Source: Escherichia coli
GTDB taxonomy: Bacteria > Pseudomonadota > Gammaproteobacteria > Enterobacterales > Enterobacteriaceae
Length of the DNA: 64,000 nucleotides
Direction: 5' to 3' (one strand)
Assembly: GCF_016903815.1 (NCBI RefSeq)
Contig: NZ_CP069973.1
Part shown: positions 2,723-38,751 of the stretch, in pieces
How the letters are laid out: each line of letters opens with the position of its first letter
How positions within the stretch are numbered: position 1 is the stretch's first letter
Program-made: the position numbers and the translations under genes
Notes under the pieces: model-generated
Database searches by the model: none
Told to the model about the DNA's origin: nothing
What the model saw: only the letters and a program-made list of their open reading frames with translations

Positions 2723-3037
2723 TCATTTATTTCCCAGTGATTTTTCGACCTTTTCAAGAAATTGAACGGGCGATTTAATGACGATCTCTGTCTTTACTCG
2801 CACAATGCGTTTATTGGTAAAACGTTCTTCTCCTTTTATTTTCACATCCACAGCAAGAATCACGACGTCAGCAGCAGAGATCTCTGCCGCCTGTAATTCG
2901 TTTTCTGTACCAATGGTTCCCTGGGTTTCAACTTTAATGGTGTGGCCCAGTGCTTTTGCCCCTTTAATTAACTTTTCACGAGCAATATAGGTGTGAGCAA
3001 TACCCGCCGTGCAGGCGGCAACACAGACAATATTCAT
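2723..3037 (-). CDS. PTS fructose-type EIIB (104 aa)
   Basis: N-terminal MNIVCVAACTAGIAHT with the phospho-Cys motif of fructose-like IIB domains. Confidence 0.8.
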   Translation of the reverse strand: MNIVCVAACTAGIAHTYIAREKLIKGAKALGHTIKVETQGTIGTENELQAAEISAADVVILAVDVKIKGEERFTNKRIVRVKTEIVIKSPVQFLEKVEKSLGNK

Positions 3038-34400: not shown

Positions 34401-35851
34401 CCGGAAACAGCTACTTTTCCGTCCGCTGATTGCAGGGAGGCGGCTTCAATGTCATAACCTTTCAGCGCATATTTGGTTTGTAAGGAAGAAACCAGCGATT
34501 TAACCTCACCCGGCTTGCCTTTCAACGGATCGGTCAGCGTCAGCCGCACCAGCTCTTTCTTGCGATATTCAAGGACAATATTGTTATTACGATCGACCAG
34601 GTCATAGCGACTGCCCACAAGGCTGCGTCGTGCTGCAACTTCAGCCGGATCGAGCTGTTTTTGCAGTGAATGACCGGGTTGCAACGTCAACTCCATACCA
34701 ATTCGGGTGTCGTTTTCTCCCTGTTTGCCCTGCCGTTGCTCGGCACTAAAGGAGATCAGAGGAACAGGGGTATAACTCAAACCTGCGGTAATCGCGTGAG
34801 GATCATTTTGTCGCTCGTCTTTACCAAACAGCGCCACTTCATCGCCATAATATTGTTCATAGACCAACTTGCCGCCCAGCTGCGGCCAGGCCGGTAACCA
34901 GCCTTCGGCGCGAAGATCCCACCCGTTCGCCGGACGTGCTTCATAGTCATTGTCGAGTTCCGGTGCACTACGCCAGTTACTGAGGCGCAGATAACCGTTG
35001 CCGCTCAGTTTCAGGTAATCGCGCCAGTATTCAACGCCCATCCCGGTTCGGGTGTGATAGCGGGTCAGGTCATGATCGATAAACATATTGACGCCAGACA
35101 TCCAGCTCGATGTGAAATAACGCCAGCCGATACCGTGGTTGGTTTGAGTGCGATCATCCGTACGGTGAAGTGTGTGCTGGCTTAAGACCAGGTTATCCGG
35201 CGTTTCGTACCAGGGATGGAGAAATTCAAATGACGAGCTTTTAAGGCTGAAATCTTCATCCACACCAAGAGATACCCGGGCAGTTCCCCAACGACTGAGC
35301 CAGTCCGTTGCCTGCGCAGATGCAGAAGAAGCCACCCAGCCACGCGCCATACTCGCCGCCTGTTCGCTGTCCATATCGCGTGCTAAAAGTGTTCCGCTTT
35401 GCTGCGCCACTTCCGCGACCTGCATTTGCGGATCTTTGCCATCGCGCTCCATCTGCATTGCTTTCAGGTTGCGCGCTTCAGGGCTGTTACTGTTAATGAG
35501 GGGCACATCTATTTCATCGCCCTGACGCACATGGTCAAAGCCCCGCGCAAAGGTACGGAACTGATTCAGGCGACGTAATTCATCAACGGTGATACCAAAG
35601 CGTGCCGCGACCGTTGGTGGCGATTCCAACGCACCCAGGGTATATGGAATAGTTTTAACGTTCGGCAGGATCAGTGACGCGGCAGTATCCGAGTGCGCAG
35701 GATTAATATGCGTCGGGGCAGCAGCCATAACAGGGAAAATAGTTTGTGTTATCAGGCAAATACCTGCGGTCAGACGACGTAAACGATCCCCCAATCCACA
35801 TATGGTGTTATCGCCCCGACGATCGCCATTCCCATGCGCTTTCCCTGCCAT
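25487..35851 (-). CDS. giant intimin/invasin-family inverse-autotransporter adhesin with about 20 tandem Ig-like (Big) repeats; 3' end replaced by IS1 (3454 aa as read)
   Basis: N-terminal LysM-like segment and intimin-type beta-barrel region (YWRDYLKLSGNGY, ERPANGWDLR, LVYEQYYGDEVALF, SRYDLVDRNNNIVLEY), then repeated ~97-aa modules (PDGTVEISVTSQTAG...VTDAFGN...); the stop codon TAA lies inside the IS1 terminal repeat (25487-25489). Resembles the EaeX/Air adhesin described with the eip locus (recalled). Confidence 0.85.
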   Translation of the reverse strand: MAGKAHGNGDRRGDNTICGLGDRLRRLTAGICLITQTIFPVMAAAPTHINPAHSDTAASLILPNVKTIPYTLGALESPPTVAARFGITVDELRRLNQFRTFARGFDHVRQGDEIDVPLINSNSPEARNLKAMQMERDGKDPQMQVAEVAQQSGTLLARDMDSEQAASMARGWVASSASAQATDWLSRWGTARVSLGVDEDFSLKSSSFEFLHPWYETPDNLVLSQHTLHRTDDRTQTNHGIGWRYFTSSWMSGVNMFIDHDLTRYHTRTGMGVEYWRDYLKLSGNGYLRLSNWRSAPELDNDYEARPANGWDLRAEGWLPAWPQLGGKLVYEQYYGDEVALFGKDERQNDPHAITAGLSYTPVPLISFSAEQRQGKQGENDTRIGMELTLQPGHSLQKQLDPAEVAARRSLVGSRYDLVDRNNNIVLEYRKKELVRLTLTDPLKGKPGEVKSLVSSLQTKYALKGYDIEAASLQSADGKVAVSGKDIQVTIPPYRFTAMPETDNTYPIAVTAEDSKGNFSRREESMVVVEKPTLSLADSTLSVDLQILLADGKSTSMLTYTARDSSGKPIPGMTLKTQAKGLQDFALSEWKDNGNGTYTQIVTAGKTSGALSLMPQFNGDDIAKTPALIAIVANTASRADSTIETDQDNYVAGKPIVVKVTLRDDNGNGVTGRKELLKQTVKVDNTKADAVSAWTEESEGIYKASYTAHLIGDKLTAQLTMPGWQTKHSDAFSIAGDKDTAKIAAMQITANNAVARRDHNTVAVTVRDVHQNLLQGQNVTFTVVNGAAVFADPNGGIVTTDKDGIASVNLASDQAVNSLIKAEINGSSQSVEVSFITGDISQLTSTIKTDDVSYTAGGKIKVSVTLMDEQKNLVKGMASLLAGSGVVEVSGTDKNEMGNWSEESDGVYTTTRTAKIAGDRHYATLKLSTWSSAQQSDAYAIRESGAVLAYSSIVTDKTTYTAGGAIKVTVTLKDSYENLVGGQRDAINQAIQLPNTKAESIAWNEDQKGIYTATYTALLPGTGLKAQLQMSGWASALTSNDYSISGDAASAQIVAMQVTTGNPDVLANGSDRHTVNVRVEDQFGNVLPEQTVTFTVTKGAAVFANAGQSADIRTDAHGMAEVDLSSTVADASTVEAKVNQSSDSKTVNFVADVSTAQVAELVVTQDGSVADGSTANMLRVRVTDVFGNVLAGQTVSVTADNSATVAPTVITGPDGTVEISVTSQTAGTSAITASINNSSLSRNVTFVADVRTAKIADLVVTRDNSVADGAMANTLRVRVTDAFGNTLAGQTVSVMADNSATVSPTVTTEPDGTVEISVTSQTAGVSTVTASINSSSQSRNVTFVADVRTAKIADLVVIKDGSEADGSTANTLRARVTDAFGNTLGGQTVSVLADNGATVAPTVTTQPDGTVEISVTSQTAGTSTVTASINNSSLSQNVTFVADVRTAKIADLVVIKDGSVADGATANTLQVKVTDAFGNALNGQTVSVMAGNGATVTPTVITGPDGTVEISATSQTAGISTVTVTINNSSLSRNVMFVADVRTAQIADLVVIKDGAVADGAMANMLQVKVTDAFGNTLAGQTVSVLAGNGATTASTVTTQPDGTVEISVTSQTAGTSVVTASINNSSQSRNVTFIADVRTAKIADLEVIKDGSEADGSTANTLRARVTDAFGNALAGQTVSVLADNGATVALTETTKPDGTAEISVTSQTAGVSAVTVSINNSSQSRNVTFIADVRTAQIAELVVIKDGSEADGSTANTLRVRVTDAFGNALAGQTVSVLADNGATVAPTVTTQPDGTVEISVTSQTAGTSTVTASINSSSQSRNVTFIADVSTAQIADLVVIKDDSVADGAMANTLRVRVTDAFGNALAGQTVSVMAGNGATVAPTVITEPDGTVEISVTSQTAGISAVTASINSSSQSRDVTFIADVRTAKIAELEVIRDNAVADGSTANTLQVKVTDANDNTLAGQAVSVLAGNSATVASTVTTKPDGTVEISVTSQTAGTSTVTASINSSSLSRNVTFVADVSTAKIADLVVIQDNSVADGAMANTLRMRVTDAFGNTLGGQTVSVTADNSAMVASTVITGPDGTVEISVTSQTAGISIVTASINNSSLSRDVTFVADVRTAQIADLVVIKDGSEADGLTANTLQVRVTDAFGNALAGQTVSVLADNGATVAPTVTTQPDGTVEISVTSQTAGVSAVTATINSSSQSQNVTFIADVRTAKIADLVVIKDGSEADGSTANTLRARVTDAFGNALAGQAVSVMAGNSATVTPTVTTQSDGTVEFSVTSQTAGTSTVTASINSSSLSRDVTFIADVRTAQIAVLEVTQDYAVADGSTANTLRARVTDAFGNALAGQTVSVLGGNGATVSPTVITGPDGTVEISVTSQTAGASTVTASINSSSLSRNVTFVADVRTAQIAVLEVTQDYAVADGSTANTLRARVTDAFGNALAGQTVSVTAGNGATVSPTVITGPDGTVEISVTSQTAGVSAVTATINNSTASQNVMFIADVRTAKIADLVVIKDDSVADGAMANMLRARVTDAFGNALAGQTVSVMAGNGATTAPTVTTQPDGTVEISATSQTAGISTVTATINNSSLSRNVMFVADVRTAQIADLVVIKDGSVADGSTANMLRVRVTDAFGNALGGQTVSVLADNGVTTAPTVITEPDGTVEISVTSQTAGVSAVTATINSSSQSQNVTFIADVSTAKIADLVVIKDGSEADGSTANTLRVRVTDAFGNTLAGQTVSVLADNGATTAPTVITEPDGTVEISVTSQTAGVSAVTASINSSSQSRNVTFVADVRTAQIADLVVIKDGSEADGATANTLRARVTDAFGNALAGQTVSVLADNGATVAPTVTTQPDGTVEISVTSQTAGISAVTASINNSSLSRNVTFIADVSTAKIADLVVIKDGSEADGSTANTLQVKVTDANGNTLAGQTVSVLAGNSATVTPTVTTKPDGTVEISVTSQTAGISAVTASINSSSQSRNVTFIADVRTAKIADLVVIKDDSVADGAMANMLRARVTDAFGNALAGQTVSVLAGNSATVAPTMTTKPDGTVEISVTSQTAGTSTVTASINNSSQSQNVTFVPGDASQLTSIVETNKSNYTVGETITITVTLRDAFDNLVTGAASQLAADGVLTVAGTDPSEMGSWVESGGVYTTTRMATIASTNQHANLQLQTWSDGVTSDRYDIQSGSPAQATSTIATDKNAYTAGDTITVAVTLKDAHGNLVEGGESLLSGDNVTVEGAVRSGGWSETAGVYTATWSAQMAGDSHHATLKLSEWGSSKQSESYSIHSGAPVQANSAIRTDKSAYIAGEPLTVTITLRDEFGNPALGLTSEVIESYIDSFAVGGATHDAMRWVEQNNGEYTIVWTAWVAEENLVASLKLKTWATEIKSSLYGIQPGAAAKTQSTIVADKTIYIAGDSITVTVVLKDAQGNFITDGVVQLNEENG
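26480..32400. repeat. tandem array of about 20 near-identical ~291-bp coding repeats (Ig-like domain units) inside the adhesin gene
   Basis: Protein-level count of 20 near-identical units; the many plus-strand ORFs in this span are antisense artefacts of the repeat. Boundaries approximate. Confidence 0.8.
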
Positions 35852-36052: not shown

Positions 36053-37237
36053 TTACTTCATTTTCACCTTTGCGGTGACCAATAACGCCGTCAGCAACAT
36101 CAATGTGCCGGACAACATCAACGGCGAAGTCAGACCAATATTATCCAGCGCATAACCGCCGATTGCCGCGCCACAGGTATTAGCAAGCTGAATAACCGCC
36201 ACCTGAATAGACCCGGCTTTTTCTGCCTGATCGGCCAGTGAGCGAGTGATCCACGTTGACCAGCCGACAGGAACCAATGCAAAAGTTAGCCCCCAGATAA
36301 TCGCCACGCCGGTAGCAACGATTTTATCGCTTCCCCACAACGTCAGCACCAACGCACTCACAGCCAGTATTAACGGCGCGCCTGCTAAGGCCAGTTTTAC
36401 CGAACGTTTAAGAATGAACGACGAAAGCGACGTACCAATAAAGCTGGCGATACCAAAACTCAACAGCACCAGCGTTAAGCCATCCACGCCGAATCCCGCC
36501 AGGTTCATATACACCGGGCGAATATACGTGAAGAAAGCAAACTGCCCGGCGAAAGACATGAAGATGGCGATCATCCCTGCCATCACACCCGGACGTTGTA
36601 ATAAGCGGAAAGTATTTTGTTTCTGATGCGAGGGTTCGCCTGGCAGCGAAGGCAATGATTTGATAATCCAGAAAATACACAGCACGCCCATCACCGCCGC
36701 CGCATTAAAGACATTGCGCCAACCGATAAGCTCGCCTAAAAAACTGCCCAACGGTGCGGCAATCACCAGCGCAATAGAAACCGCGCCGAAGATCACCGAC
36801 AGCGCCTTCGGCACCGTACGCGGCGGTACCAGACGCATGGTCAGCGACGCCGACATCGCCCAGAACCCGCCCAGCGCCAGCCCCAGACAGGCACGACCGA
36901 TTAAAAGCAAACTGAATGAGTTAGCAAAGGAAACCAGCAAGCAGGAGAGCGTCAGCAAAACGGCAAACAAAATAACAACGTAGCGGCGGTCAGTGGCCTG
37001 AATTGTCTGGGTAATAAACAAACTGGCAAACATTGCCACAAAGGCGGTCACGGTCACCGATTGCCCGGCAACCCCTTCCGAAATGCCTAAATCCTGGGCC
37101 ATTGGCGTCAACAAACTGACGGGCAAAAACTCAACGATAATCAGACAGGCGACGCAAAACGCCACCGAGAATACGGCTGACCAGTTCGGTCGGGTGATGA
37201 CATCCGCGCCGCGGTTTTCGGCAATAAATTCACTCAT
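36053..37237 (-). CDS. nepI: MFS purine ribonucleoside efflux transporter
   Basis: 12-TM MFS; start placed at [13 protein letters not shown]... (the track ORF extends 16 codons upstream). Confidence 0.85.
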
Positions 37238-37470
37238 GGTGTTACCCGTGGCATGTTTCAGGGGAAAAGCCGACCACTTTAACATTGAAATGTGTGACGC
37301 ATTTAACGTTTTTGCAACTTTTACGGTGTTGTGGGAAAAGTTCGAGGCTGCTCGAAGAAATAAAAATCATAGGGCAAGGTGATATGTATTTTCGCGATTG
37401 TGTTGGGAACAAGGGATAAAGTATTGCACTTGGTGATATACTTTAATAACAGGACCTCAACGATATACGC

Positions 37471-37824
37471 GTGTTTAAAACCAAATGGTTTGCAAGGGAA
37501 GCCAGGTCTCATGCAATAACAGATGAAGAGTTGTGCCGTGCCATTTTAGAAACGGAACAAGGTAAAGCTGATGCACTTGGCGGTGGCGTTTTTAAAAAGC
37601 GCCTTCACCAAAATCGTGAGCGTGCAATTATTCTGGCAAAAGGGGGAAGCAATTGGTTTTACACGTTTTTATATGCAAAACAGGATATGTCGAACATCAA
37701 TAGTCAGGAACTGGCTGGGTTTCGTGAACTTGCAAAGCATTATGCCTTCCTGACGAAAGCCCAACTAACAGCAATGATTAACACTAAAGAACTGACAGAG
37801 ATCTGCTATGACTGCAAAAACTAA
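37471..37824 (+). CDS. putative type II toxin, RelE/HigB (Gp49-like) fold (117 aa)
   Basis: Small basic protein with GGGVFKKRL...RAIIL...FYTFLYAKQD pattern reminiscent of HigB-2/Gp49-like toxins; GTG start; overlaps the downstream HTH gene by 17 bp. Confidence 0.5.
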   Translation: MFKTKWFAREARSHAITDEELCRAILETEQGKADALGGGVFKKRLHQNRERAIILAKGGSNWFYTFLYAKQDMSNINSQELAGFRELAKHYAFLTKAQLTAMINTKELTEICYDCKN

Positions 37825-38131
37825 ATTTAAAAGTCCTGCATTTGAGGCTATTCACAGCGCAGCGGCTGGATTGTCCAGCGTCGATGCTATTTCTGCTGAA
37901 ACGATGCGTACTTTTGACAAAGCCTGCCTGACCAGCGTGCAAGACTTACAACCTGTTGAGATAAAAGCACTGCGGGAAAAATTAAAAGTGAGTCAGCCCG
38001 TCTTCGCTCACTATCTCAATACCAGCGTTTCAACTGTACAAAAATGGGAAAGTGGCGCTAAACGCCCCAATGGCATTTCATTAAAACTGCTCAGCATTGT
38101 GCAAAAACACGGGCTGGAGGTGCTGCTGTAA
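37808..38131 (+). CDS. putative antitoxin, XRE/MqsA-like HTH DNA-binding protein (107 aa)
   Basis: C-terminal HTH (LKVSQPVFAHYLNTSVSTVQKWESGAKRPNGISLKLL); toxin-first overlapping gene pair. Confidence 0.5.
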   Translation: MTAKTKFKSPAFEAIHSAAAGLSSVDAISAETMRTFDKACLTSVQDLQPVEIKALREKLKVSQPVFAHYLNTSVSTVQKWESGAKRPNGISLKLLSIVQKHGLEVLL

Positions 38132-38171
38132 ATAGAACGTAGATAATGCGTTCACCTACTGTCAGTTCCGA

Positions 38172-38245
38172 TACCGGATGCGGCGTGAACGCCTTATCCA
38201 CCCTACAGGTCAGGCGCGGTCTGTAGGCTGATAAGACGAAGCGGT
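38172..38245. repeat. REP/BIME-like extragenic palindromic repeats
   Basis: CCGGATGCGGCGTGAACGCCTTATCC...CTACAG followed by an inverted partner CTGTAGGCTGATAAGACGAAGCG, between the HTH gene and yicN. Confidence 0.5.
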
Positions 38246-38246
38246 T

Positions 38247-38699
38247 TTAATGCAGCCAGTGAACGCCCTCGGCAGGCTGAAAGAACGCGTTATAGCGCAT
38301 CTGAAAAGCATTAATATCCTGCATTTCAGGTTCGGTTTCGCGCAGAAAACCCAGCGCCAGCCTGACCTGAGCATCGGTAATCGGCGCGGCAAGGCGGGCT
38401 TTTTGTAAAATCCGATGCCATTGCAGCAGGTTCTGTTCGCTACCATCGACAATGACAATTTGCCAGATGAGCAATACCTGCGCGGCGTTTTGCAGGTGCG
38501 ACTCATCCGGGCGATGCAAATAACGTAAAAATTCGTCACCGGCTGACTTTCCCATTTGATCGACCATCGACTCCACGGGTACGACATCGATATTCAGCCG
38601 ATCGCTGAGACGGCGAATCGCTTTTCTGGCCCCGGATGTCAGCACCCGAAAACCAACCACAAACACTACCGCCAGCGTGGCGAGCATTATCCAGATCAT
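38247..38699 (-). CDS. yicN: DUF1198-family small membrane-anchored protein
   Basis: N-terminal TM helix (MIWIMLATLAVVFVVGF); start ambiguous (the track ORF begins at 38726). Confidence 0.7.
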   Translation of the reverse strand: MIWIMLATLAVVFVVGFRVLTSGARKAIRRLSDRLNIDVVPVESMVDQMGKSAGDEFLRYLHRPDESHLQNAAQVLLIWQIVIVDGSEQNLLQWHRILQKARLAAPITDAQVRLALGFLRETEPEMQDINAFQMRYNAFFQPAEGVHWLH

Positions 38700-38751
38700 G
38701 AGTTCTCCTGCGTAATCAGAACTCATGATATCTGGAAACCCTCGCCAGTTA

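Follow-up and report, generated by a model that had tools for sequence, protein, structure and literature searches.

A putative toxin-first HigB2/HigA2-type toxin–antitoxin operon between nepI and yicN of Escherichia coli

What is encoded by the two small, overlapping genes that lie between nepI and yicN on some Escherichia coli chromosomes? The pair considered here is found in a 64,000-nucleotide (nt) stretch of E. coli DNA (assembly GCF_016903815.1, contig NZ_CP069973.1), which is referred to as the window and to which all coordinates below refer. An earlier note on this DNA proposed a toxin-first type II toxin–antitoxin (TA) module with a RelE-superfamily toxin and an XRE antitoxin, and this proposal is supported by profile matches, the predicted fold of the toxin, the pairing of the two genes in other bacteria and a population survey. 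With a probability of about 80%, the pair is a chromosomal type II TA operon of the HigB2/HigA2 kind, composed of a PF_RelE toxin and a YiaG/HigA2-like antitoxin. The kind of system, the family and the RefSeq annotation as a TA toxin plus a helix-turn-helix (HTH) protein were already known: the RefSeq labels read "type II toxin-antitoxin system RelE/ParE family toxin" and "helix-turn-helix domain-containing protein", respectively. A literature search for the locus (yicN, nepI, yicM, the WP accessions and COG4737) found no experimental study of it.

The toxin gene (open reading frame (ORF) 1, HigB2-type, PF06296) occupies positions 37471..37824 of the + strand, starts with GTG and encodes 117 residues, or 119 from the ancestral start described below. 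The antitoxin gene (ORF2, HigA2-like; 37808..38131, +) starts with ATG and encodes 107 residues, of which residues ~1-45 form a putative toxin-binding segment and residues 46-102 an XRE HTH domain. The 3′ end of the toxin gene and the 5′ end of the antitoxin gene share 17 nt (37808..37824, +), an overlap that probably leads to translational coupling. Both reading frames and the overlap are those described in the earlier note, and the toxin is indeed basic (computed isoelectric point of 9.0).

To Pfam family PF06296 ("RelE"), the toxin shows a full-length match (E 1.3e-39, 135.6 bits, model positions 3-120 of 120), and this match and the RelE-type predicted fold uphold the proposed placement in the RelE superfamily. 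For both ORF1 and ORF2, profile matches exclude a chance origin. The narrower assignment of the toxin to the Gp49/HigB family (PF05973) has to be replaced: PF06296 is the sole Pfam match at E<=10, with no match to Gp49/PF05973 and none to MqsR (PF15723). No NCBIfam or PADLOC model matches the toxin. PF06296 is the family called PF_RelE in the 2025 survey of the RelE/ParE superfamily by Gerdes, and its characterised member, HigB-2 of Vibrio cholerae, is a ribosome-dependent mRNA nuclease that is encoded toxin-first (PMC11980606). V. cholerae HigB2 itself falls in PF06296 (E 3.3e-8; sequence verified as identical to PDB 5ja9_C).

The predicted structure of the toxin is in agreement with this family assignment. 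An AlphaFold2 model calculated from 25 homologues (pLDDT 85) has the RelE/ParE (BECR) fold, and in a Foldseek search with this model HigB2 accounts for all of the best seven PDB matches. The active-site residues of HigB2, as defined by mutagenesis, are R51, R64, Y82 and K84 (PMC5416850). In an hhalign alignment of the two toxins (E 3.3e-4, probability 38%), these residues pair with R44, R51, Y68 and K70 of the window toxin, and a locally similar stretch is present (IYGKNEMSDL in HigB2, LYAKQDMSNI in the window toxin). Across the wider PF06296 family, R44, R51 and K70 are each at least 90% conserved. A toxin of this fold could nevertheless act on another target, either as a protein inhibitor similar to SehA, which blocks RNase III, or as a ParE-like gyrase poison. 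Salmonella SehA, a HigB-like toxin from a different family, acts on RNase III as an inhibitor and does not cut mRNA (PMC12817084). Such a target is very improbable for the window toxin: the residues required for HigB2 activity align with conserved residues that the window toxin keeps, SehA lacks the conserved active-site residues and its own residue pattern does not fit the window toxin, and the one characterised PF06296 member is a ribosome-dependent mRNase. In addition, the C-terminal end of the toxin (residues 108-117, window positions 37792-37821) comprises a final strand and an E-I-C-(H/Y)-D tail that are conserved in close relatives. The variable position of this tail is His in most relatives and Tyr in the window toxin, and the tail is not found in V. 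cholerae HigB2.

Two profiles match the second protein, HTH_3 (E 1.2e-7) and MqsA_antitoxin (E 1e-5, C-terminal half of the model), which bears out the C-terminal XRE/MqsA-like HTH that had been noticed in it. Among PDB sequences, V. cholerae HigA-2 (5jaa) matches this protein best (E 8e-10), with residues 46-102 aligned. The N-terminal 45 residues hold the motif K-S-x-A-F-x-A-I-H-S-A-A, the core of which (F-x-A-I-H) is kept from enterobacteria to a distant bacterium (L017) and a natural toxin–antitoxin fusion (P0178, described below). Several closer identities were considered for the antitoxin and rejected on their profile cut-offs. MqsA-family identity (TIGR03830) fails at 41.1 bits against a cut-off of 61.8, with a match to the HTH half only (profile positions 47-119); NadS identity (NCBIfam NF041265) fails at 41.3 against 60 bits, and YiaG equivalog identity (NCBIfam NF007481) at 29.2 against 110 bits. 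The antitoxin has one Cys residue and lacks the N-terminal zinc-binding CxxC domain of MqsA.

The toxin and antitoxin were also modelled with AlphaFold2 as a single polypeptide, with a flexible linker between them and paired homologues as input. In this linker-fused model (pTM 0.69), the pLDDT of the toxin rises to ~94, and the N-terminal helices of the antitoxin, residues 10-24 and 30-40, are predicted with pLDDT values of 88-97. Folding of the antitoxin N-terminal segment on the toxin would fit this model. By analogy with V. cholerae, the toxin would enter the ribosomal A site and cleave mRNA under translation by means of R44, R51, Y68 and K70, and the N-terminal segment of the antitoxin would fold onto the toxin and block it. 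A dimer of the antitoxin would bind an inverted repeat over the −10 element and repress the operon, and the toxin would be freed once the labile antitoxin is degraded or no longer made. From V. cholerae we infer the toxicity, cleavage, binding and physiological role of a module that may be working or mildly attenuated in the window.

A candidate operator for the antitoxin dimer is present upstream of the toxin gene. A repeat search yielded an inverted repeat at 37417..37445 (+) with 13-nt arms that are 85% complementary (TAAAGTATTGCAC / GTGATATACTTTA) and a core of TATTGCAC-N3-GTGATATA. This core is conserved in Citrobacter koseri (TATAGCAC-TAA-GTGCTATA) and in Salmonella, where the surrounding spacer has diverged. 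This candidate layout resembles the published operator of V. cholerae HigA2, in which one inverted repeat of 19 bp covers the −10 element (PMC11006873). A candidate extended −10 element, TGaTATACT, can be read within the inverted repeat at 37434..37442 (+); it follows a conserved pattern, TGnTATACT, that E. coli shares with C. koseri and Salmonella. A consensus scan of the module for promoters and terminators found nothing; because the two-hexamer promoter scan was negative, the extended −10 element stands as a candidate. The toxin Shine-Dalgarno sequence AGGA is found at 37451..37454 (+), and the longer ACAGGA is conserved in Escherichia, Citrobacter and Salmonella.

The spacing between this Shine-Dalgarno sequence and the toxin start differs between alleles. 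Homologues begin with MRVFKTKWF, from an ATG equivalent to position 37465, and this ancestral start codon (37465..37467, +), two codons upstream of the GTG and 10 nt from the Shine-Dalgarno sequence, is ATG in most carriers and ATA in the window. Because the ancestral ATG reads ATA here, toxin translation in the window must begin at the GTG at 37471, 16 nt from the Shine-Dalgarno sequence, and to judge from this poor spacing toxin output is probably reduced. The ATA is shared by the window and O157:H7 PV15-279, and four other sampled carriers have ATG. Among 1716 carriers, the exact ATA allele of the window is present in 466 and ATG in at least 1074, with 176 assigned to neither. A different lesion, the internal stop W62*, interrupts the toxin gene of O157:H7 TR01 (L003 927-1280). 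This gene is flagged as a pseudogene next to an intact antitoxin gene, and by its sequence the allele is an example of toxin-first decay.

These alleles raise the alternative that the module is decaying or attenuated in the window strain, producing little or no toxin and persisting mainly as an autoregulated HTH protein. The loss of ATG at the ancestral start leaves the distantly spaced GTG as the sole in-frame start, the ATA allele is common to more than a quarter of the carriers, another lineage has lost the toxin to a premature stop and kept the antitoxin, and deletion has removed the entire module from two thirds of E. coli genomes. In contrast, the toxin ORF of the window is otherwise intact and retains all four putative catalytic residues, E. 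coli does use GTG starts, the annotation pipeline PGAP calls the downstream GTG (37471) as the start in ATG and ATA alleles alike, and toxins of this class need only very low levels to act. On balance this alternative is judged unlikely.

A further proposal can be made for the same alleles and for the C-terminal tail of the toxin. The nepI-linked enterobacterial branch of PF06296 might be mechanistically unlike V. cholerae HigB2, with its extra C-terminal helix, final strand, E-I-C-(H/Y)-D tail and two-helix antitoxin N-terminus. C-terminal His or Tyr residues play a catalytic or regulatory part in YoeB, YafQ and RelE, and the tail might supply an additional catalytic or regulatory residue; the ATG-to-ATA change and the nonsense alleles might set toxin dosage differently in different E. 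coli lineages. This proposal is speculative and rather doubtful.

Several observations weigh against assignment of the pair to a HigB2/HigA2-type operon. Y68, one of the four putative catalytic residues, alternates between Tyr and Phe across the family, and the hhalign match between the toxin and HigB2 reaches a probability of only 38% despite its E value of 3.3e-4. Searches with phmmer and with two family profiles built from the toxin gave no relevant PDB match, which places the relationship to HigB2 as remote, at ~20% identity. Because these sequence-only searches failed, the link between the two toxins is drawn from Pfam, the fold search and hhalign only. The fold itself is no proof of RNase activity, since SehA is not an RNase (PMC12817084). 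The contacts between toxin and antitoxin are inferred from model confidence values only, and a two-hexamer consensus scan found no promoter. Finally, to judge from their sequences, the ATA start allele and the W62* pseudogene show that the toxin is attenuated in some lineages.

The pairing of the two genes beyond E. coli supports a TA operon. A PF06296 gene followed by an overlapping HTH_3 gene (107-110 residues) is observed in six other taxa: Citrobacter koseri, Salmonella enterica, Yersinia enterocolitica, Pantoea, a mine-drainage bacterium and one further distant bacterium. The 17-nt overlap is identical in C. koseri, Salmonella and Yersinia. A metagenomic protein of 247 residues (P0178) is a natural single-chain fusion of the toxin domain with the full antitoxin, including F-E-A-I-H-S-A-A and the HTH. 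Plasmids of Rhizobiales, Pseudomonas and Legionella carry homologues of ~55% identity, in most cases beside a regulator gene, and no phage-borne copies of the toxin were found among the homologues examined. In the mine-drainage metagenome-assembled genome (L016 1-2680), the homologous pair adjoins three tandem tyrosine-recombinase genes, which suggests a mobile context for that copy.

In C. koseri (L008) and S. enterica (L011), a pair of 119 and 107 residues is arranged head-to-head with a nepI homologue, as in the window; the Salmonella orthologue of the window toxin that adjoins nepI is P0036. To the right of the pair lies yicN in Citrobacter and a phosphotransferase system (PTS)/aldolase cluster in Salmonella. 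A comparison of the three nepI-linked genera gives nonsynonymous divergence (pN) of 0.06-0.19 against saturated synonymous divergence (pS) of ~0.72-0.77. Because pN is low while pS is saturated, both genes are, by this sequence comparison, under strong purifying selection. The head-to-head arrangement in three genera, and a haplotype boundary that lies ~95 bp upstream of the nepI start, could also be explained if the antitoxin were a transcription factor for the divergent nepI gene or for nearby purine genes, with the toxin as its cofactor and no addiction module at all. This explanation is scarcely credible: the pair occurs in contexts unrelated to nepI in Yersinia, Pantoea and other bacteria as well as on plasmids, K-12 keeps nepI without the pair, and the conserved inverted repeat overlaps the putative −10 element of the pair itself.

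Within E. coli, 1716 of 5426 complete genomes carry the pair, each with a single copy on the chromosome. K-12 MG1655 lacks it, and nepI and yicN are 210 bp apart there with no gene between them, just as the earlier note had stated. The description of the pair as accessory, which that note had coupled to a comparison of the interval across strains, stands in part: the pair is absent from K-12 and present in under a third of the genomes, but it is ancestral and was lost by deletion in strains of the K-12 type. By blastn of an empty allele (L002) against the window, the module is carried on a haplotype-specific segment of 840 bp (37332..38171, +), in place of which empty K-12-type genomes have 41 bp (L002 position 2960-3000). 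The flanks of the segment, up to 37331 and from 38172, are 99% identical between the alleles, and its GC content is 43% compared with 49% for the window.

The 41-bp filler of the empty allele retains a piece of the toxin gene. It holds GAAACGGAACAGGGCAAAG, which matches 37549-37567 (toxin codons E-T-E-Q-G-K) at 17 of 19 positions; both mismatches are at synonymous third positions, and none of 1000 shuffles scores as high. This stretch is peculiar to the toxin allele of Escherichia, and the K-12 MG1655 spacer with this fossil is L018 3241-3450. Nothing in the module significantly matches the first half of the filler. Because the spacer carries the 19-nt toxin fossil, the empty K-12-type allele is argued to be a deletion derivative of the filled locus, and because nepI-linked synteny with the same 17-nt overlap extends to Citrobacter and Salmonella, presence is argued to be ancestral. 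A recent mobile-element insertion was also considered and was rejected given the lack of flanking repeats and mobility genes, the synteny in three genera and the fossil in the empty allele.

The suggestion that the pair contributes to persistence or phage defence finds no support here; among the PADLOC defence models, the toxin matches 0 families and the antitoxin has only weak, generic HTH matches. A related alternative retains the mechanism and changes the selective reason, the main role being abortive-infection phage defence or stabilisation of neighbouring DNA and not stress or persistence. Family members are found on plasmids, the copy in one metagenome-assembled genome adjoins three integrase genes, V. 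cholerae higBA-2 stabilises plasmids and RelE/ParE toxins are present in defence systems (PMC11980606). In contrast, the toxin has no PADLOC match and no phage was found to carry it, the pair occupies one fixed housekeeping locus without mobile-element genes in Escherichia, Citrobacter and Salmonella, and most E. coli have lost it with nothing in its place. Such a role is considered improbable for the window pair.

The operon is flanked on its left by nepI (36053..37285, −) and on its right by yicN (38247..38726, −), followed by adeQ and adeD. A REP/BIME element does lie beside the pair, at ~38172-38240, as had been pointed out; it is 3′ of yicN and belongs to the end of that gene. Because the empty allele has it too, it is not a part of the module. 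An Rfam scan gave a sub-threshold match to the REP-derived naRNA4 at 38138-38240 (32.9 against 59.5 bits) and otherwise only a spurious microRNA match. No intrinsic terminator was detected after the antitoxin gene, and the REP hairpins may end the transcript. Beyond nepI, a giant ORF of 3454 residues with many tandem repeats of ~100 residues extends from 25487 to 35851 on the − strand. Its counterpart in strain 7/2, a gene of 11,421 bp compared with 10,365 bp for the window ORF, is annotated as the inverse autotransporter adhesin EaeX/Air, and the length difference indicates that the number of repeats differs. K-12 lacks this ORF, and yicS abuts nepI there.

The small additions made here to the existing annotation are the correct family, a conserved operator candidate, synteny across three genera, the toxin fossil of K-12 and the start-codon allele. 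With this pair, the set of TA modules that varies among pathogenic and commensal E. coli gains one more RelE-superfamily module, and, as an E. coli-native member of the HigB2 family, the pair is open to study in its own host. The locus also provides a clean natural series of chromosomal TA attenuation and loss, from an intact ATG through ATA and nonsense alleles to a deletion with a 19-nt fossil in K-12. Automatic annotation already names the pair, and its importance beyond book-keeping is small.

Among known systems, the window pair can be compared most directly with V. cholerae HigB2/HigA2 (PDB 5ja8, 5ja9, 5jaa and 8a0x). Both toxins belong to PF06296, HigB2 is the best structural match, the order is toxin-first and the four catalytic residues of HigB2 align with conserved residues of the window toxin. 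The antitoxins are alike in having a C-terminal XRE HTH; the N-terminal segment that neutralises the toxin in HigA2 has a putative equivalent in the window antitoxin, and the inverted repeat over the −10 element has a candidate equivalent in the window operon. In contrast, toxin identity is ~20%, the β2–β3 loop is 6 residues shorter in the window toxin, and the window toxin has an extra C-terminal helix, strand and E-I-C-Y-D tail. The N-terminus of HigA2 is a helix plus a strand, whereas that of the window antitoxin is modelled with two helices. V. cholerae higBA-2 is a superintegron cassette with another operator sequence, whereas the window pair is at a fixed chromosomal site beside nepI.

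The relE-yiaG modules described in the superfamily survey (PMC11980606) also resemble the pair: a PF06296 toxin is encoded upstream of an XRE HTH protein with a HigA2-like HTH, natural fusions occur (here P0178), and the N-terminal helices of the antitoxin are predicted to contact the toxin. Toxins of the subfamily on which that survey focuses have long disordered N-terminal extensions (PMC11980606), which are present in the relatives P0115 and P0125 and absent from the window toxin, and the window antitoxin falls below the YiaG equivalog cut-off (29 against 110 bits). The earlier note had described a toxin-first, overlapping order as characteristic of higBA- and mqsRA-type modules. The pair is indeed toxin-first and of the HigB2 type, but it is not mqsRA. 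It shares with E. coli K-12 MqsR/MqsA the toxin-first order and a C-terminal XRE HTH antitoxin that matches the second half of the MqsA profile; unlike that system, its toxin has no match to the MqsR family PF15723 and its antitoxin is without the N-terminal zinc-binding CxxC domain.

HigB/HigA of Proteus vulgaris Rts1 and of E. coli K-12 are likewise toxin-first type II systems with a RelE-superfamily toxin and an HTH antitoxin. In these systems, unlike what is predicted for the window pair, HigA is folded throughout and leaves the active site uncovered (PMC5416850). Salmonella SehA/SehB is a chromosomal, toxin-first HigB-like module of an enterobacterium, and its HTH antitoxin acts as the repressor of the operon. 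SehA differs from the window toxin in having three helices, three strands and an α4 helix, and its residues Y53, D61 and H88-Y98 are without a counterpart in the window toxin. An identity of the pair with SehAB is ruled out, as neither the secondary structure nor the key residues of SehA fit.
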